Assembly: GCA_029269845.2 (NCBI GenBank)
Contig: CP149973.1
Coordinates: 180,001 to 212,000, forward strand
Origin: Opitutia bacterium KCR 482
Lineage (GTDB): Bacteria > Verrucomicrobiota > Verrucomicrobiia > Opitutales > Intestinicryptomonadaceae
Length of the DNA: 32,000 bases
Direction: 5' to 3'
How positions within the stretch are numbered: the first letter of the stretch is position 1; every line of letters begins with the position of its first letter. Below, in pieces: positions 3,197 through 10,941 of the stretch. The position numbers and the translations under genes are program-made. The notes beneath the pieces were generated by a model. It did not search any database. It worked only from the letters and a program-made list of their open reading frames with translations, and was not told the DNA's origin.

Positions 3197-3991
3197 CTAA
3201 AATTCCCTTTTGGAAAACGCGAATGCCGCAGCCGCAATCGCCGCCGCAGAATAAGCCGCGGCATAGGCTAACGCAGCCGCGAACGCGCCGCAGTCGACGG
3301 GCGCAAACGCGAACTTTTCGAGGGCGTTGAACATGTTGAAATCGGGAAAAGCATAGGAGGCGATTTTTGCAAAGCCCTCCGTCTTTCCGCCGAGCCAGAG
3401 CGTGATTTCGCCCGCGGTCGAAACCGCAAGCGCCATGAAAGACACTACCGCCGAGAAGAGCAGGGAGGTTGACACCGAGCACACGAACGCCGCAACCGCC
3501 GCAACCGCGCAAAGCTTGCACCATTGCGCGAACGCGTACGCGCAGACGCCCGCATAGTTTGTTTCAAGCCCCCCCGAAAGTCGCTCCGCCGCCTCTCCGA
3601 AACCCGCCCGCGTGATGAAAAGCATAAGGCACGTCGCCGCCGCGATTACTGCGGCGAAAAGCGCGAGAGCCGCCGCCGCGCCCAGAAACTTTCCAGCCGC
3701 AAACTGCGCGTACCCGACGGGCTTTGAGAGCAGGGTGATGACCGTCTTGTTTTCAAGCTCCGAATGGAAAATCTGGCAAGTGGCGACGACCGCGATAATC
3801 GAGCCGAAAAATCCGAGCGCGCCCGAACCGAAGTCGAACACAAAGCGCAGCTGTTCGTGCCCGAGGTCGAGCGACAGCAGGTATTTCGAGGAGAGCACGA
3901 GCGCGAGCGCAACGAGCGCCACAAGAATCATCAGCTTCTGCCTGAGCGTCTCGCGCAGAGTGTTTGCCGAAATCAAAAAGACGTTTCTCAT
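3197..3991 (-). CDS. ABC-2 type transporter permease
   Basis: 264 aa, multi-pass hydrophobic protein. The N-terminus MRNVFLISANTLRETLRQKLMILVALV and ...TVITLLSKPVGYAQFAAGKFLG are typical of ABC-2/NosY-like permeases. Its ATG overlaps the stop of the ATPase gene (ATGA at 3988-3991). Confidence 0.75.
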   Translation of the reverse strand: MRNVFLISANTLRETLRQKLMILVALVALALVLSSKYLLSLDLGHEQLRFVFDFGSGALGFFGSIIAVVATCQIFHSELENKTVITLLSKPVGYAQFAAGKFLGAAAALALFAAVIAAATCLMLFITRAGFGEAAERLSGGLETNYAGVCAYAFAQWCKLCAVAAVAAFVCSVSTSLLFSAVVSFMALAVSTAGEITLWLGGKTEGFAKIASYAFPDFNMFNALEKFAFAPVDCGAFAAALAYAAAYSAAAIAAAAFAFSKREF

Positions 3992-4824
3992 TTTCCCTCC
4001 ACGGTTTTTTTGAAAAATTCTTCGAGCGAAATTTTAGACGCCGATTTTTTCACGACATTCGCGCCGAGCGACTCGGCGAAGGCTGCTATTTTCGCAAGCC
4101 CCTCCGCGTCCGCGCCGTCGATGTCGAGGCTCGTGCGCCCGCCGATTTCAAGCAGTTTGTCGATTTCGCCGATTGCCGCGATTCTGCCCGCGCTAAGGAC
4201 AGCCACACGAGAGCACAGCCGCTCGACCTCGCCCATCATGTGCGAGCACAAAAGAATGGTCTTGCCCGCGTTTTTGAGCTTCACGACGATTTCCGCCATC
4301 GCCGACGTTCCAACGGGGTCGAGCCCCGACGCGGGCTCGTCGAGAATGACGACTTTCGGGTTGTGGACAATCGCCTGCGCAAGCCCCGCCCGCTGTACCA
4401 TTCCCTTTGAATAGAGGGAAAGCGGGCGGTTTGCGGCGTCGGAAAGCCCGACAGTTTCGAGCGCGTTTTCTGCGGCGGCGCGGGCGGCTTTTTTTCCCAG
4501 CCCGCAAAGTTCGGCGTAGAACGAAACGAGCTCAAGCCCGCTTAGGAACTTGTAAAAATAGGGGTTTTCGGGAAGGTAGCCGACTTCGCGCTTTGTAGCG
4601 CGGCTTGTCGGATTGCCGAGAATTTTGCATTCGCCCGAATTTTGCCTGAGTAGCCCCAGCAGAATTTTAATAGTCGTGCTCTTGCCCGCGCCGTTCGGCC
4701 CGACAAGCCCGAAAACTTCGCCTTCCGCAACGTCGAACGACACGCCGTCGAGGGCGCACACGCCGATTCCGCGTATGCCGTAGCGGTAATATTTTTTGAG
4801 ATTTTTTATCTCTATTGCGTTCAT
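3988..4824 (-). CDS. ABC transporter ATP-binding protein
   Basis: Walker A GPNGAGKST, signature variant YSKGMVQR, Walker B VVILDEP, H-loop LCSHMM. ATGA overlap with the upstream acylphosphatase gene at 4821-4824. Confidence 0.92.
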   Translation of the reverse strand: MNAIEIKNLKKYYRYGIRGIGVCALDGVSFDVAEGEVFGLVGPNGAGKSTTIKILLGLLRQNSGECKILGNPTSRATKREVGYLPENPYFYKFLSGLELVSFYAELCGLGKKAARAAAENALETVGLSDAANRPLSLYSKGMVQRAGLAQAIVHNPKVVILDEPASGLDPVGTSAMAEIVVKLKNAGKTILLCSHMMGEVERLCSRVAVLSAGRIAAIGEIDKLLEIGGRTSLDIDGADAEGLAKIAAFAESLGANVVKKSASKISLEEFFKKTVEGK

Positions 4825-6183: not shown

Positions 6184-6258
6184 CGGGTGGTAGCGCAGCC
6201 TGGCTAGCGCATCTGGTTTGGGACCAGAGGGTCGTGGGTTCGAATCCCACCCGCCCGA
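6184..6258 (+). tRNA. tRNA-Pro(TGG): tRNA-Pro (anticodon TGG)
   Basis: Folded by hand. Acceptor CGGGTGG / CCGCCCG (one G-U pair), D stem GCGC/GCGC, anticodon stem TCTGG/CCAGA with loop TTTGGGA (anticodon TGG, G37), variable loop GGGTC, T arm GTGGG-TTCGAAT-CCCAC, discriminator A. CCA is not encoded. Confidence 0.93.
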
Positions 6259-6364: not shown

Positions 6365-6533
6365 CCTCAAAAATCGTTGCGCCAAAACAAATCCCGCGCG
6401 TTGAAAGTTCCTACAATTATTTGCGTTTATTGTCGCAAAAAAAAATGTTCCGCAACGTTCCGCATTTTCGGCGAAAAAAAAACGGTTGACAAATTTCCGC
6501 GCATAATTTTTTTGTCTTAACAGTTCATTTAAC

Positions 6534-6710
6534 AGGGTGGATTTCGATTCCGCCTACGACATTTTTCAGACAAACGGAAGCCCGTGAGAATCGGGCGCGG
6601 TCGCGCCGCTGTAAGTGTCCGTTTCGCGCTAAACATTTTGCCACTGCAACAGCGGGAAGGCGTTTTGCGCGGGGACACAAGCCAGAAGACGAGTCTGAAA
6701 GATTCACCCT
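6534..6710 (+). promoter_or_regulatory. Cobalamin (B12) riboswitch aptamer
   Basis: Conserved blocks seen by eye: GGAAGCCCGTGAGAATCGGGCGCGGTCGCGCCGCTGTAAG (6576-6615), GCCACTG...GGGAAGGC (6640-6661) and a B12-box-like AAGCCAGAAGAC (6679-6690). Closing helices are TTTCAGAC (6564-6571) / GTCTGAAA (6693-6700) and AGGGTG (6534-6539) / CACCCT (6705-6710). It lies upstream of a TonB-receptor operon, the classic context. Confidence 0.85.
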
Positions 6711-6716
6711 TTGATT

Positions 6717-6790
6717 CCCGCGCAAGGATTTCCGAGGGCTTGTCGCGATGTTTCCGCGGGGCTTTTTATTTTTTTGTTTGCCCCGCAGTC
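6717..6790 (+). terminator. Putative riboswitch expression platform (terminator/antiterminator alternatives)
   Basis: CCCGCG (6717-6722) can pair with CGCGGG (6755-6760), followed by the T-run TTTTTATTTTTTT (6763-6775). Alternatively GCGGGGC (6756-6762) pairs with GCCCCGC (6780-6786), followed by AGTCTTTTC. Confidence 0.4.
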
Positions 6791-6848
6791 TTTTCGCGTT
6801 CGGGCTTCACGGTTTTCTCCGCGGGGCAACCAACGGAAAAGACAAGCT

Positions 6849-7832
6849 ATGAAATACCAATTAACATCAATACTCGCTTGCGGCGCGCTCATCGCGGCCT
6901 CAGCAAATGCGGCTACAATCTCGTTCGAAGACGTTTCTCTTCGCGGCGACTGGAACTACGAAGGCGTTGACTACTCCGTATACGGCGGGGAAGACTACTA
7001 TACTTGGAAGCCCTCTTCGAGCGGCAAAGTTTCGTCGTGGCAAAAGATGCCCGAAAGCGTCGGGCGCTTCGAATGGAATTTCGGAAAAATCACGAGCGGC
7101 CTGCATTTCAAGACAACATCGTATAATTATAATTACTATAATGCGGGCGGATTCTTGCTTTCGAATTCGACAAACAAGTCCGACACAACCTACGCGAACG
7201 ACCTTTGCTCGATTACGGGCGGCGGCGCGGGCGGTTCGTCGCAGTACGGCGTATTTTTCGGAAGCGTTGCGGACTCCAATTATGTTGCGCAAAAGCAGAC
7301 TTACAAGGGCAGGGAATATTATTCCACGCTTGCCGGCGAATATCAGCTGACATTCGACGACGTTTACAATGTCAAGTCAATCGACATCACAAACACCGCC
7401 GTTAACGGAAAAATCTTCGGCTCGCCCGACTCCGCCAGCAACATGGGCTACACGACCGACGACAACGGGAAAATCACATACAACAGCGTGTTCAACACCG
7501 AAGACGCGTTCATTGCAGTTCTCGTTCGCGGCATAGACACAAACGGCGAGCTTACGCCGCTTGACGACGCCGCGACTTTCGTGCTCGCCTCCTACGGCTA
7601 CCTCTGCGCCGATTGGGGCACGCTCGACTTGTCGAACCTCGCGACCGACGGTCTTATCGGGCTCGACTTCCAGATTATTTCTTCGTTCGGCAACACATAC
7701 GGCATGACTTCGCCCGCATACTTTGCCTTCGACAATATTCTCCTGAACGTACCCGAACCCGCGACATACGCAATGTTCTTCGGAATAATCGCGCTTGCGT
7801 TCGCCGTTCGCCGCAGGTCTTTGCGCAAATAA
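6849..7832 (+). CDS. Secreted PEP-CTERM-anchored protein, DUF4465-like (candidate corrinoid-binding surface protein)
   Basis: ATG at 6849 gives the signal peptide MKYQLTSILACGALIAASANA. The upstream part of ORF 6711..7832 overlaps the riboswitch platform and is not coding. The C-terminus VPEPATYAMFFGIIALAFAVRRRSLRK (7749-7829) is a canonical PEP-CTERM signal. The core YYNAGGFLLSNSTNKSDTTYANDLCSITGGGAGGSSQYGVFFGS resembles my memory of DUF4465. Confidence 0.75.
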   Translation: MKYQLTSILACGALIAASANAATISFEDVSLRGDWNYEGVDYSVYGGEDYYTWKPSSSGKVSSWQKMPESVGRFEWNFGKITSGLHFKTTSYNYNYYNAGGFLLSNSTNKSDTTYANDLCSITGGGAGGSSQYGVFFGSVADSNYVAQKQTYKGREYYSTLAGEYQLTFDDVYNVKSIDITNTAVNGKIFGSPDSASNMGYTTDDNGKITYNSVFNTEDAFIAVLVRGIDTNGELTPLDDAATFVLASYGYLCADWGTLDLSNLATDGLIGLDFQIISSFGNTYGMTSPAYFAFDNILLNVPEPATYAMFFGIIALAFAVRRRSLRK

Positions 7833-7837
7833 AAAAT

Positions 7838-7895
7838 AGCGGGGCACAAGCCGTTTTTTTTCGTTTTCGGCTTGCGCCCCGCTTTCCATTTTTTT
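7838..7895 (+). terminator. Strong intra-operon hairpin / partial terminator between the first PEP-CTERM gene and the TonB receptor
   Basis: AGCGGGGCACAAGCC (7838-7852) pairs with GGCTTGCGCCCCGCT (7869-7883), 15 bp with one A-C mismatch and a T-rich 16-nt loop, followed by TTCCATTTTTTTAT. Confidence 0.45.
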
Positions 7896-7916
7896 ATAAA
7901 ATAGAAAAACAGAAGA

Positions 7917-9908
7917 ATGTTTGACTTTATCGGAAAAACCGCGTTTGCGGGGGCGTTTGTAGCGTTCCCGCTCGTTTTGTTTTGCGCGGAGCCGCAAATG
8001 CTCGAACCCGTCGAGGCAACGGCGTACCGCTTCGAAACCGACGCGCTCGACCAGCCCGTAAATTCGACCGTAATCACCTCCGAACAAATCGAAAAAAGCG
8101 GGGCTATTACCGTTCCCGAACTTTTACAGCGCACGGGCAATATACGCTTCATGAGCTACACGGGGGATTCGTCGAACAGCAATATTTCAATGCGCGGCTT
8201 CGGCGAAAATTCGCAAATGCGCGTGCTTGTGCTCGTGGACGGGCAGAGGTACAACCGCGCCGACATGTCGGAAACAAACTGGCTGCAAGTGCCGCTTTCC
8301 AACGTCGAAAGCATCGAGATTTTGAAAGGCTCGCAAAGCGCGATGTACGGCAACAACGCAATCGCGGGGGTCGTAAAAATCAACACGAAAAAGGGCGCGC
8401 CCGAAAACACGCTCGAAGTAAACGGCATGATTGGCTCGTACGGCTTGTACAACGTGGACGCCGCCTTCAAGGGAAGCGCGGGCGACTATCTCTACAACCT
8501 CGACGTCAACCGCTACAACAACGACGGCTACCGCGAAAATTCGCGCTCGTGGGCGGACACCGTAAACGGGGCTGTCGGAATGGACATTACGGATTCGATA
8601 AAGCTCGAACTCACGGGCAACTTTTCGCTCTCCGAAACCGAATACGCAAGCGGCGGAAATTGGGAGGACGACCCCCGCAAGGCGGACCTCCAAATGCTCT
8701 ATAAATACAAGGGCGGAGTCTATGCGGCGACCCTCAAAACGGAGTCGTCGGCGGGCAGGGGGGAAGTCCAGTTCGGCGCGAATTTCAGAAACAGGATTAT
8801 CGAAGAGCCGAACGCTCTCATCAAAACGCAAAAAGTCAACGACCAGCTTACTTTTACGCTTTCGCCGCGCTTCGAGCTGGACAAATTCGAAGACTGGACT
8901 TTCTATACGGGCATAGACTCCGACTTCACCAAAATCGATTTCGACTCCCTCCGCTTCTCTCGCTATGGGCTGCAAAAACCCGACACCGCCGACGTCGAAC
9001 GCGGCGACATCGGCGGCTATATCGGCGCGGAGTACGATTTTTCCGAAGACCTGATTTTCTCGGCGTCGGGACGCGCCGAAGGCTCGTTCACAAGCGTCGA
9101 CTACAAAAAATACCGCTATGTCGGAGCGCGTCCGCCGCAGTTCCTTCCCGATAAATCGTACGACGAAAGCCAGTGGCAGGGCGGTTTTGCGGGGTCGTTC
9201 GGCGCGACATACAAGCTCGACTCCGAAAATTCCGTCTACGCCCGTTTCGACCAAATCTACCGCTATCCCTCCACCGACGAAATCGCGTTCTATCAGGGCT
9301 ACGACACGGCGTCGTTCCCGTTCAACAAAGACTTGAAGCCCGAAATTGGGCAGAACTACGAGCTTGGCTACAAATTCATTTCGGGCGGCTGGAACGTAAA
9401 CGCGAGCGGCTACGCAATGTTCCTCGACAACGAAATCATGTACGTCAAATCCACAAACCTCAACGAGAACCTCGCGCCCACAAGACGGCTCGGCGCGGAC
9501 GTGTCGGTCTCGTACGACGCCCGATATTTCGGCGTCTTCGCGGGAATGTCGGCGGTGGATGCGCGTTTTTGCGGGGGAATTTACGACGGCAAAAAAATCC
9601 CGCTCGTCTCGCCGTTTTCGGGTTCGGCGGGGGTCGTGGCAAAGCCGCTCGAACGGCTCGACATCACCGCCCGCGGCAACTGGTCCGTCCCGCAGGTCAT
9701 GGGCGACGACTTCCGGAACGTCCAGCAAAGCGTTCACGGCTATTTTACTTTCGACCTCCTTGCAAACCTGACCCTTTGCGACTACGCCTCGCTCTTCGGG
9801 GCAATCGAAAACGTCTTCAACGAAAAATACGCGGTTTTCGCATATTCAAACAAATACTATTTCTGCGCGGGTAGAACTTTCAAAATAGGAATTAAAATAA
9901 GGTATTAA
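7917..9908 (+). CDS. TonB-dependent outer-membrane receptor, BtuB-like (in a cobalamin riboswitch-controlled operon)
   Basis: 663 aa. Signal peptide, plug domain (ISMRGFGENSQMRVLVLVDGQRYN; IEILKGSQSAMYGNNAIAGVVKINTKKG), a long beta-barrel region, and a C-terminal FKIGIKIRY ending in an aromatic residue. Its size and the riboswitch context fit BtuB. Confidence 0.88.
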   Translation: MFDFIGKTAFAGAFVAFPLVLFCAEPQMLEPVEATAYRFETDALDQPVNSTVITSEQIEKSGAITVPELLQRTGNIRFMSYTGDSSNSNISMRGFGENSQMRVLVLVDGQRYNRADMSETNWLQVPLSNVESIEILKGSQSAMYGNNAIAGVVKINTKKGAPENTLEVNGMIGSYGLYNVDAAFKGSAGDYLYNLDVNRYNNDGYRENSRSWADTVNGAVGMDITDSIKLELTGNFSLSETEYASGGNWEDDPRKADLQMLYKYKGGVYAATLKTESSAGRGEVQFGANFRNRIIEEPNALIKTQKVNDQLTFTLSPRFELDKFEDWTFYTGIDSDFTKIDFDSLRFSRYGLQKPDTADVERGDIGGYIGAEYDFSEDLIFSASGRAEGSFTSVDYKKYRYVGARPPQFLPDKSYDESQWQGGFAGSFGATYKLDSENSVYARFDQIYRYPSTDEIAFYQGYDTASFPFNKDLKPEIGQNYELGYKFISGGWNVNASGYAMFLDNEIMYVKSTNLNENLAPTRRLGADVSVSYDARYFGVFAGMSAVDARFCGGIYDGKKIPLVSPFSGSAGVVAKPLERLDITARGNWSVPQVMGDDFRNVQQSVHGYFTFDLLANLTLCDYASLFGAIENVFNEKYAVFAYSNKYYFCAGRTFKIGIKIRY

Positions 9909-9910
9909 AG

Positions 9911-10888
9911 ATGAAAAAGACACTTGCAATATTATCCATAATACCGTCGCTGCTATCGGCGGGCGAATATTACATTCCGCAAAACGGCGAAAGCTACACC
10001 ATCGACGACTTCGGCATTCAGTATTGCGGAGCGGCGGGCGAAGACGCCTCGAAAACGTCGGAGGTCTTTTGGAGAAACAGCAAAATCAAGGCATGGGCGA
10101 CGGGCTACAAAGACCTTGCCTACGGAGCAAACGTAATCGACAAATGGAAGACGCCCGAAAAGGCACTCGGCTCGGCGGGGCTTACCGACTACGGCAATAC
10201 GGACCCGTCTTCGCCCAACTACGACCCAGACGCAAGCTCGCTTTACCATATTGTTTCGCTCGGCGACGGCGGCTCTATTACAATGACTTTCGACCGCGCA
10301 ATCACGAACGGGGGCGGATTCGATTTTGCGGTTTTCGAAAACGCGGTCAACGCGGGATTCCTTGAACTCGCATACGTCAGCGTTTCGACGGACGGCATAA
10401 ACTTTGCGACCTTCCCGAATTTCTATGTAGGCGGAGACCCGATAGGCTCGTACGACAACGTGAACTATCCCGAATACGTCTACAATCTGGCGTCGAAGTA
10501 CGTCAACGAATTCGGGCACGGCTTCGACCTCTCCGAGCTTGAATTCGCCTACAACTACGCGAAAGCGCACTACGACCCCGAAACGGACTCGGTTATCAAT
10601 AACAGCGCGTTTTCGCTCGAATACACCAAGCATATCATGGAGTCTTTCGAATTGATAGACATTAACGAAATCAACTACATTAAAATAGACGACATCGTAG
10701 GCGACGGCTCGTGCGTGGACAGCGCGGGCAACCCGATTTACGACCCGTACCCGACTTCCGAAAGCGGCGGCTTCGACCTGAACGCAATCGGCGTGCTCAA
10801 TCAGGTTCCCGAACCCGCCTCGACCTGCGCGGTATTCGCGGTTGCGTCGCTTGCGATCGCCGCGTTCGCAAGAAGAAAACGCGCATAG
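9911..10888 (+). CDS. Secreted PEP-CTERM-anchored protein of unknown function, translationally coupled to the TonB receptor
   Basis: Starts 2 nt after the receptor stop. Signal peptide MKKTLAILSIIPSLLSAGE. The core block SLGDGGSITMTFDRAITNGGGFDFAVFENAVNAGFLELAYVSVSTDGINF is a domain I cannot name. The C-terminus VPEPASTCAVFAVASLAIAAFARRKRA (10805-10885) is a PEP-CTERM signal. Confidence 0.75.
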   Translation: MKKTLAILSIIPSLLSAGEYYIPQNGESYTIDDFGIQYCGAAGEDASKTSEVFWRNSKIKAWATGYKDLAYGANVIDKWKTPEKALGSAGLTDYGNTDPSSPNYDPDASSLYHIVSLGDGGSITMTFDRAITNGGGFDFAVFENAVNAGFLELAYVSVSTDGINFATFPNFYVGGDPIGSYDNVNYPEYVYNLASKYVNEFGHGFDLSELEFAYNYAKAHYDPETDSVINNSAFSLEYTKHIMESFELIDINEINYIKIDDIVGDGSCVDSAGNPIYDPYPTSESGGFDLNAIGVLNQVPEPASTCAVFAVASLAIAAFARRKRA

Positions 10889-10901
10889 CAAGCCTTTTCC
10901 G

Positions 10902-10941
10902 AAAACGGAGTTTTGGGCGCGTCCCGAAGCTCCGTTTTTTT
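10902..10941 (+). terminator. Intrinsic terminator ending the riboswitch-controlled operon
   Basis: AAAACGGAG (10902-10910) / CTCCGTTTT (10930-10938) running into a T7 tract. Confidence 0.65.

Follow-up and report, generated by a model that had tools for sequence, protein, structure and literature searches.

We analysed a 32,000-nucleotide stretch of the genome of Opitutia bacterium KCR 482 (Verrucomicrobiota; assembly GCA_029269845.2, contig CP149973.1, positions 180,001 to 212,000), hereafter the window, and describe a plus-strand operon in which a cobalamin (vitamin B12) riboswitch precedes a TonB-dependent receptor gene flanked by the genes of two putatively exported proteins, called here protein 1 and protein 3. 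The initial annotation, made from the letters of this DNA, had placed a B12 riboswitch aptamer at 6534-6710; the Rfam model RF00174 recovered it complete at window positions 6528-6712 (68.7 bits against a gathering score of 31.5, E 3.8e-15, model positions 1-189), and the match contains the GCCACUG core. The gene arrangement described there, three genes and then a terminator, was confirmed as well. The co-directional genes encode protein 1 (6849-7832, 327 aa, C-terminus NVPEPATYAMFFGIIALAFAVRRRSLRK), the receptor (7917-9908, 663 aa) and protein 3 (9911-10888, 325 aa, C-terminus QVPEPASTCAVFAVASLAIAAFARRKRA), the last of which indeed begins 2 nt past the receptor stop codon. The operon is closed by an intrinsic terminator (10901-10941), whose hairpin (10901-10938, 17-bp stem, dG -24.6 kcal/mol, z -4.9 relative to shuffled sequences) is followed by UUUUUUU.

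Protein 1 and the TonB-dependent receptor

Protein 1 is composed of a Sec signal peptide (..ASANA/AT, with the slash marking the predicted cleavage site), a DUF4465 beta-jellyroll (aa 94-297) and a PEP-CTERM tail (aa 301-327, nt 7749-7829). It matches the Pfam model PF14717 (DUF4465) with E 3.6e-18 and 67 bits (cut-off 25) over profile positions 3-176 of 176. Single-sequence searches of the PDB with protein 1 and protein 3 returned nothing useful, and family profiles were needed. A DUF4465 profile that combined protein 1 with 18 homologues adjoining relatives of protein 3 retrieved 9HMU (E 2.5e-56), 9FCT (BtuJ1, 2.5e-38) and 9I2L (BtuJ2, 1.4e-21). The initial annotation had stated, with reservation, that BtuH carries a DUF4465 domain; this was an error, since DUF4465 is the BtuJ family (BT1491, BT1957) and not BtuH (PMC13616437, PMC13398666). 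In B. thetaiotaomicron, the surface lipoproteins BtuJ1 and BtuJ2 have picomolar to nanomolar affinity for cobalamin and cobinamide (PMC13398666, PMC13616437). The eight divergent DUF4465 members tested so far all bind B12, and two B12-binding members are known from Verrucomicrobiota, one from Coraliomargarita akajimensis (D5EK51, PDB 9HMU) and one from Haloferula luteola (PMC13398666). By its sequence, protein 1 is a BtuJ-like DUF4465 homologue. In the HI-loop, where Asn291 and Tyr295 of the BtuJ2 NTPAY motif contact B12, protein 1 reads TSPAYFAFDN against NTPAYFA.DN (NTPAYFAMDN) in the family, with Pro, Ala and Tyr kept, and its homologues from neighbouring clades retain NTPAY. A candidate lipobox in protein 1 (Cys11, ..SILAC/G..) was rejected, because homologues do not conserve this Cys and the hydrophobic stretch extends as far as ASANA/A, which points to signal peptidase I (SPI).

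The receptor carries the Pfam domains Plug (E 6.4e-26) and TonB_dep_Rec_b-barrel (E 3.8e-31), i.e., the architecture of a plug with a 22-strand barrel, and lies under the predicted control of the B12 riboswitch. Its best sequence relatives in the PDB are YncD, PqqU and E. coli BtuB (E 1e-14 over the plug). We presume that it is a BtuB-type corrinoid transporter, an assignment of substrate that follows from the riboswitch and the partner genes.

Protein 3 and its family

Protein 3 comprises a Sec signal peptide (..LLSA/GE), a domain of ~280 aa (aa 18-297) assigned to the BtuH superfamily and a PEP-CTERM tail (aa 299-325, nt 10805-10885); the signal peptide, MKKTLAILSIIPSLLSA followed by GE, contains no Cys. 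The Pfam scan found no domain in it, so that of the two accessory proteins for which the initial annotation had considered DUF4465, only protein 1 matched (PF14717, as above). AlphaFold (AF2) models of protein 3 reached a pLDDT of 89.7 at full length and 92.8 for residues 18-297. A Foldseek search against 350,542 PDB chains returned only three matches below 1e-3, namely 7biz_A, 8blw_B and 7biz_B (2.4e-5 to 6.7e-5), and all three contain a BtuH domain (7BIZ is BtuH2 and chain B of 8BLW is BtuGH). Discoidin domains came next, at 2e-3 or worse, which is ~100-fold weaker than the BtuH chains. The sequence profile of the protein 3 family also had 8blw_B as its best match in the PDB.

Profile comparisons point in the same direction. 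The BtuH alignment comprised nine domains, from Bacteroides BtuGH and BtuH1 sequences recovered from gut metagenome contigs, the btu loci having been retrieved with a 55-aa chimera of two BtuGH fragments. Alignment of the protein 3 family with these domains by hhalign gave a probability of 93% and E 3.3e-7, with a core block in which IVSLGD-GGSITMTFDRAITNGGG-FDFAVFENA...FLELAYVSVSTDG stands against VISLGGFGGTITVGFHQSIRNSKGEYDFRILGNA...SAEPGIVLVSKDE (pattern SLG-GG-IT-F...DF..(E/G)N...E...VS.D). A relaxed alignment added collinear motifs at both ends, PYAPAAGQ versus EY.PAPGQF and I.YVRI versus IDFVKIY. Reciprocally, a hidden Markov model (HMM) of the Bacteroides BtuH domains, searched against the 3,405 open reading frames (ORFs) of loci L001-L084, yielded 95 matches at E ≤10 that cover 82 of the 85 protein 3 family ORFs, and the window protein itself was found at E 6.8e-4. 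Two neighbouring proteins bridge the families: L040 1441-2277 matches the BtuH HMM at E 3e-7 and the HMM of the protein 3 family at E 1e-10, and for L022 1307-2470 the corresponding values are 4e-8 and 6e-7. They adjoin genes of DUF4465 proteins or protein 3 homologues and resemble an intermediate BtuH branch outside Bacteroidota, and one of them bears a VPVP-type PEP-CTERM-like tail.

In BtuH2, N399 and E406 hold the phosphate of the nucleotide loop via Ca/Na, F401 stacks on the corrin and Q333 hydrogen-bonds it (PMC13616437). With the offset of the residue numbering inferred from the 7BIZ SEQRES record, N399 corresponds to N144 and E406 to E152 of protein 3, each invariant in all 60 aligned family members. 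Four independent lines, namely the Foldseek search, the family profile, hhalign and the reciprocal HMM search with its bridging proteins, indicate that protein 3 is a real but remote homologue of the BtuH B12-binding domain, related to it at the level of the superfamily and not as a member of the same subfamily.

Relatives of protein 3 are numerous. There are 3,746 matches in a collection clustered at 90% identity, an exhaustive search of 50%-identity representatives gave 3,462, 2,081 and 1,318 clusters at E ≤1e-3, 1e-10 and 1e-30, respectively, and with each GTDB species represented by a single genome, a relative was found to be encoded in at least 583 of them. Genomic context was counted in the best 80 loci of these genomes, one per species (~0.8 Mb in total), by Rfam scans, phmmer and ORF clustering. 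The loci span at least eight phyla, with Verrucomicrobiota, Kiritimatiellota, Planctomycetota, Desulfobacterota, Myxococcota, Beta- and Gammaproteobacteria, Spirochaetota and Cyanobacteria represented. A riboswitch of the cobalamin clan lies upstream on the same strand in 57 of the 80 loci, a TonB-dependent receptor is encoded in 48 and a DUF4465 gene in 45, while in six a single ORF fuses the protein 3 domain to DUF4465. The association with riboswitches and B12 uptake genes that the initial annotation proposed to look for across genomes is therefore present. With cobalamin riboswitches estimated to occur about once per Mb of genome, chance alone would account for roughly one in the sequence examined. 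On the strength of the riboswitch link in 57 of 80 loci we also rejected, as the main reading, that protein 3 is a PEP-CTERM surface protein of generic type or a carbohydrate-binding module. In approximately 30 loci the protein 3 homologue overlaps the receptor stop codon or follows it within a few nucleotides. Gene order differs between groups: Verrucomicrobiota and Desulfobacterota have DUF4465-receptor-protein 3, Betaproteobacteria have protein 3-DUF4465-receptor. This variation indicates that the association is kept by selection rather than by descent alone. Further recurrent neighbours encode BtuF-like binding proteins, ABC ATPases, ExbB, TonB and the corrinoid adenosyltransferase BtuR/CobO.

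Several features of individual loci were recorded in addition. The ORFs that fuse the protein 3 domain to DUF4465 (L044, L055, L062, L074, L082 and L083) represent a link of the Rosetta-stone type; those of Planctomycetota exceed 1,100-2,000 aa, and some are cut by contig ends. Twelve loci of Planctomycetota and Kiritimatiellota encode, beside the protein 3 homologue under riboswitch control, a pseudopilin-like protein that has the prepilin N-terminal methylation motif PF07963 (e.g., L015 6999-7808, L029 4911-5891, L074 4384-5304, L082 and L083). In most of these 12 loci phmmer detected no TonB-dependent receptor, a sign that uptake in these phyla may take another route. In two loci of Desulfobacterota, a variant c-di-GMP-I-GGC riboswitch (RF03167, 63-64 bits, gathering score 59) directly precedes the DUF4465 gene (L036 3538-3615, L040 502-585), and in L036 it stands in tandem behind a cobalamin riboswitch (3228-3429). 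Since a second cobalamin riboswitch lies near the operon in several loci (L065 8155-8345, minus strand; L021 3973-4167; L036 1935-2119; L049 4793-4980, minus strand), B12-regulated genes cluster there.

Sorting signals, hairpins and surroundings

Proteins 1 and 3 share a Sec signal peptide and a C-terminal tail of VPEP, hydrophobic helix and Arg/Lys cluster, and neither has a lipobox. Against the PEP-CTERM model TIGR02595, protein 1 reaches 22.0 bits, above the cut-off of 16, and protein 3 reaches 14.5 bits, slightly under it, although by eye the tail of the latter is complete with VPEP, hydrophobic helix and RRKRA. A regular-expression search of all six frames of the window found PEP-CTERM-like tails in these two proteins only. 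In the protein 3 family the anchors vary: among the 60 aligned members, 27 end in PEP-CTERM and 10 in VPLPA-CTERM; in Desulfobacterota a Cys-containing tail of GGCFI type (CFI-box-like) occurs; many relatives from Verrucomicrobiota carry an additional C-terminal domain ending in FWRL or FYRL; and some domains of the family lie within giant multidomain proteins of up to 2569 aa. The DUF4465 proteins adjoining protein 3 relatives almost all have VPEP, VPVP or VPIP tails, and in databases DUF4465 also occurs with the Por_Secre_tail of the type IX secretion system (T9SS) and with dockerin, the latter being found with the protein 3 family too. Such variety suggests that the capture domains are paired with whichever extracytoplasmic sorting module a lineage uses. 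It argues for an extracellular or surface role of these domains, and we infer a corresponding location for proteins 1 and 3.

The crystallised B12 binder from C. akajimensis bears on the same point. The D5EK51 construct (9HMU) ends in ...DQVGVVPE, and relatives that are 59-64% identical to it continue VVPEPS..LLAGL..RRRR; judged by these relatives, D5EK51 is probably a natively PEP-CTERM B12 binder that has already been characterised. The publication of D5EK51/9HMU does not mention a C-terminal sorting signal, and in the literature searched we found no link of PEP-CTERM or exosortase to B12 capture. The statement in the initial annotation that a PEP-CTERM-anchored cobalamin module had not been described thus holds as far as this literature is concerned and is weakened by the B12-bound, probably natively PEP-CTERM, DUF4465 protein of Verrucomicrobiota.

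Two further RNA structures lie within the operon. Behind the aptamer, the stem UCCCGCG...CGCGGGG (6716-6761) and the U-rich tract CUUUUUAUUUUUUU form a candidate expression platform (6716-6776), in which the stem is possibly, and only plausibly, an intrinsic terminator; as it folds no better than shuffled sequence, we make no claim on whether the riboswitch acts transcriptionally or translationally. Between the genes of protein 1 and the receptor, a 16-bp stem (7838-7883) followed by UUUCCAUUUUUUU forms an intra-operon hairpin (7838-7897) with dG -31.5 kcal/mol and z -6.2, which none of 200 shuffles equalled. Comparable hairpins, differing in sequence, follow the DUF4465 stop codon in four related loci of Verrucomicrobiota (L005, L007, L010 and L071). 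This hairpin may serve as a partial terminator or as a stabiliser of the 3' end, which would raise the ratio of BtuJ-like protein to receptor, and it might act as an attenuator within the operon to set stoichiometry. An excess of protein 1 would parallel B. thetaiotaomicron, in which, among the Btu proteins, BtuJ1 has the highest abundance. Upstream of the operon, a tRNA gene (6184-6258, 64.7 bits) ends ~270 nt before the riboswitch, and TTGACA at 6486-6491 is the sole obvious promoter-like element before the aptamer; a sigma-70 scan reported no full promoter there.

The remaining genes of the window encode glycoside hydrolases, a sugar transporter, a glycyl-radical enzyme and an ABC-2 exporter. 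In agreement with the initial annotation, no BtuF, BtuC or BtuD is encoded in the 32 kb, where the only ABC genes, at 3197-4824, are of the ABC-2 exporter type; considered as BtuCD, they were ruled out on this ground and lie on the minus strand, opposite to the operon. Neither a tonB gene was found in the window, nor, in the operon or the window, a gene for the seven-bladed beta-propeller BtuG. The identical operon is present on four assemblies, including the metagenome-assembled genome (MAG) GCA_964313555.1, and the closest relatives at the species level are MAGs of gut Opitutales, with 40-49% identity in protein 3.

Proposed function and comparison with known systems

Our collective results make it likely that the locus is a B12-repressed corrinoid-scavenging operon which combines a BtuJ-like protein, a BtuB-type receptor and a BtuH-like protein, does without BtuG and uses PEP-CTERM in place of lipidation. 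The riboswitch, the identities of the domains, the homology to B12-binding structures and the linkage across phyla are observed here, and from these we infer that proteins 1 and 3 bind B12 at the surface and pass it on in a certain order. At low intracellular cobalamin, the riboswitch would permit expression of the operon. Protein 1, as a DUF4465 jellyroll of BtuJ type, would bind corrinoids tightly, and protein 3, with its distant BtuH-type domain, would probably pass them to the BtuB-type TonB-dependent receptor, which would import them through the outer membrane. Both accessory proteins would be exported by Sec, and their retention or display beyond the cytoplasmic membrane would depend on exosortase, as opposed to lipidation in Bacteroides. 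Owing to the hairpin after the first gene, the BtuJ-like protein is probably produced in larger amounts than the receptor and protein 3, while inner-membrane transport (BtuFCD or an equivalent) and TonB-ExbBD would be encoded elsewhere. The suggestion of the initial annotation that the two accessory proteins are functional analogues of the corrinoid-capture lipoproteins of Bacteroides is thereby strengthened, as the matches to PF14717 and to BtuH domains indicate homologues and not mere analogues.

Several observations weigh against this proposal, as a whole or in part. The candidate expression platform at 6716-6776 folds with dG -17.9 kcal/mol and z ~0 relative to shuffles; an upstream riboswitch is absent in 23 of the 80 loci, at least 7 of which are cut by a contig end; and in protein 1 the Asn of NTPAY, a corrin contact in BtuJ2, is replaced by Thr. 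The receptor scores below the thresholds of the BtuB equivalogs (114.8 bits against TIGR01779 TonB-B12, cut-off 599.7; 89.4 against NF007926, cut-off 836) and is by sequence a generic TonB-dependent receptor. It could thus import another substrate, such as cobinamide-type precursors, another tetrapyrrole or a cobalt chelate, the riboswitch merely coupling its expression to B12 status. Scores against haem and siderophore receptor models as good as those against BtuB models, all below cut-offs, would fit this, as would the best PDB relatives YncD and PqqU and the known control of cobalt transport and precursor salvage by B12 riboswitches. We regard it as highly improbable, given that characterised members of both partner families bind cobalamin and cobinamide and that related operons contain BtuF-like and BtuR/CobO genes.

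Further points of this kind concern protein 3. Its TM-scores with BtuH are only 0.36-0.40, and trimming of the signal peptide and tail improved the Foldseek E-values ~10-fold with TM-scores still ≤0.40; hence we call the relationship superfamily-level. The confidently aligned hhalign columns number only 48, and in global alignment the probability falls to 54%, so that the reliable alignment is limited to the core block and the short terminal motifs. BtuH2 F401 corresponds to F146, which is Phe in 41 of 60 members and Val in the window protein, and Q333 to Q44 of the PAAGQ motif, Gln in 26 of 60 and Glu in the window protein; the BtuH2 contacts H476, Y510, D522, S582 and E584 lie outside the confidently aligned block. 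Possibly, protein 3 does not bind B12 and is a structural partner of the receptor, i.e., a lid, a docking platform or a discoidin-like module binding glycan or exopolysaccharide (EPS), which positions the BtuJ-like binder. The absence of the family's Gln44 and Phe146 would agree with such a role, together with the discoidin and F5/8-C carbohydrate-binding domains among the second-tier fold matches, the tight coupling to the receptor gene, which suggests a stoichiometric complex, and the precedent of BtuK2, a paralogue from a B12 locus that does not bind B12. However, the family is most strongly conserved where the metal/phosphate-loop site of BtuH2 (N399, E406) falls, a site that is invariant in the family, and B12 is bound by each of the three BtuH-domain proteins tested from B. 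thetaiotaomicron, which makes a non-binding protein 3 unlikely.

Surface display is questioned by the lack of an exosortase (EpsH/Xrt) gene in the 32-kb window and in 21 kb of contig CAYBYZ010000011.1, and the fate of PEP-CTERM proteins is in general experimentally poorly established. PEP-CTERM tails begin as inner-membrane anchors, and their final destination has rarely been demonstrated. Proteins 1 and 3 might hence act in the periplasm, either uncleaved and tethered to the inner membrane by the C-terminal helix and arginine cluster or released after cleavage, where they would take B12 from the receptor in the manner of BtuF and feed an inner-membrane transporter. This would account for an operon without btuF, none being found in the window, and the DUF4465 paper labels members that are not lipoproteins simply as having periplasmic targeting signals. 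Nevertheless, BtuJ and BtuH of Bacteroides are surface-exposed (PMC13616437), some related operons additionally encode a BtuF-like protein of their own, and both families occur with clearly extracellular modules (dockerin in both; T9SS on DUF4465; VPLPA-CTERM and giant surface proteins in the protein 3 family). We therefore consider a periplasmic function quite improbable and retain the corrinoid-scavenging operon with displayed binders as our interpretation.

The pairing of a cobalamin riboswitch with a receptor is already known, as is DUF4465 as a B12 binder in Verrucomicrobiota. New are the recognition that protein 3 and its large multi-phylum family form a branch of the BtuH superfamily linked to B12 riboswitches, the swapped anchor, and a three-part module lacking BtuG that recurs across phyla. 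More broadly, and only as a tentative idea, a minimal BtuJ-BtuB-BtuH module without BtuG may be the widespread mode of outer-membrane B12 scavenging in Gram-negative phyla other than Bacteroidota, with the BtuH-like protein as the dedicated partner of the receptor and the binders displayed or released via exosortase, possibly attached to EPS or shed as a B12 sponge for the community. If so, this would be the first nutrient-acquisition cargo for exosortase/PEP-CTERM sorting. Accessory B12-capture proteins are currently framed as a speciality of Bacteroidota based on surface lipoproteins, and BtuH as a fold with no structural homologues. Our findings suggest that the BtuH superfamily is much larger, including a divergent branch with no Pfam model (~2,000 clusters at 50% identity and E ≤1e-10) that occurs across many phyla under riboswitch control, next to receptors and sometimes fused to DUF4465. 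They also suggest that anchors are interchangeable, the same capture domains being found on PEP-CTERM, dockerin, VPLPA-CTERM, CFI-box-like, T9SS or lipid anchors. PEP-CTERM cargo would thereby gain a concrete, testable biochemical function, and the locus supplies B12-binding candidates as well as a better basis for predicting cobamide uptake in gut and environmental Verrucomicrobiota, Planctomycetota and Desulfobacterota.

Among known systems, the PEP-CTERM/exosortase system (TIGR02595; Haft et al.) shares with proteins 1 and 3 the signal peptide, VPEP, the hydrophobic helix and the C-terminal Arg/Lys cluster. Its known cargo so far mostly has no assigned function or is linked to EPS/flocculation, and PEP-CTERM cargo for nutrient capture coupled to a TonB-dependent receptor is not described in the literature searched. 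BtuJ1, BtuJ2 and D5EK51 (9FCT, 9I2L and 9HMU) resemble protein 1 in the PF14717 domain, in a profile alignment across the whole jellyroll and in the HI-loop (N/T)(T/S)PAY..D, and BtuJ likewise has a signal peptide, riboswitch control and a TonB-dependent receptor in the same operon. Protein 1 differs in ~35 additional residues near the N-terminus, in the Thr that replaces the conserved Asn of the NTPAY loop and in having an SPI-type signal and a PEP-CTERM tail instead of a lipobox; the combination of a signal peptidase II (SPII) signal with the Bacteroidota lipoprotein export signal marks the BtuJ proteins of Bacteroides and not the Pfam family. The BtuB-BtuG system of Bacteroides is similar in that it, too, expresses a TonB-dependent receptor under riboswitch control together with extracytoplasmic accessory proteins that bind B12; however, BtuG is universal in Bacteroides B12 loci, whereas here it is absent and a BtuH-like gene adjoins that of the receptor.

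For protein 3, the sole curated model with a recurrent weak match to its family is NF033170 (LIC_13355 family lipoprotein, Leptospira, NCBIfam), to which 52 of 60 members align at E ≤0.1 (best 9e-7) over the same conserved core. The family scores far below the 120-bit cut-off of this model (14.3 bits for the window protein), which describes lipoproteins with no assigned function. BtuH (BtuH1 BT1488, BtuH2 BT1956 and BtuGH BT1490; 7BIZ, 8BLW chain B) has a C-terminal domain of ~270 aa, compared with ~270-280 aa in protein 3, and shares with it the collinear motifs Y.PA(P/A)GQ, SLG.GG.IT..F...I.N..G.DF...(G/E)N, E....VS.D and I.(F/Y)V(K/R)I; the likeness extends to the position of the protein 3 gene, which adjoins that of the receptor behind a B12 riboswitch. 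Identity between the two is ~12-13%, and BtuH has an insertion of ~60 aa, while protein 3 would be anchored by PEP-CTERM and not as a lipoprotein and has neither N-terminal PKD domains nor a fusion to BtuG. Moreover, BtuH has been reported only from gut Bacteroidota and three Firmicutes, whereas the branch of protein 3 spans many other phyla.

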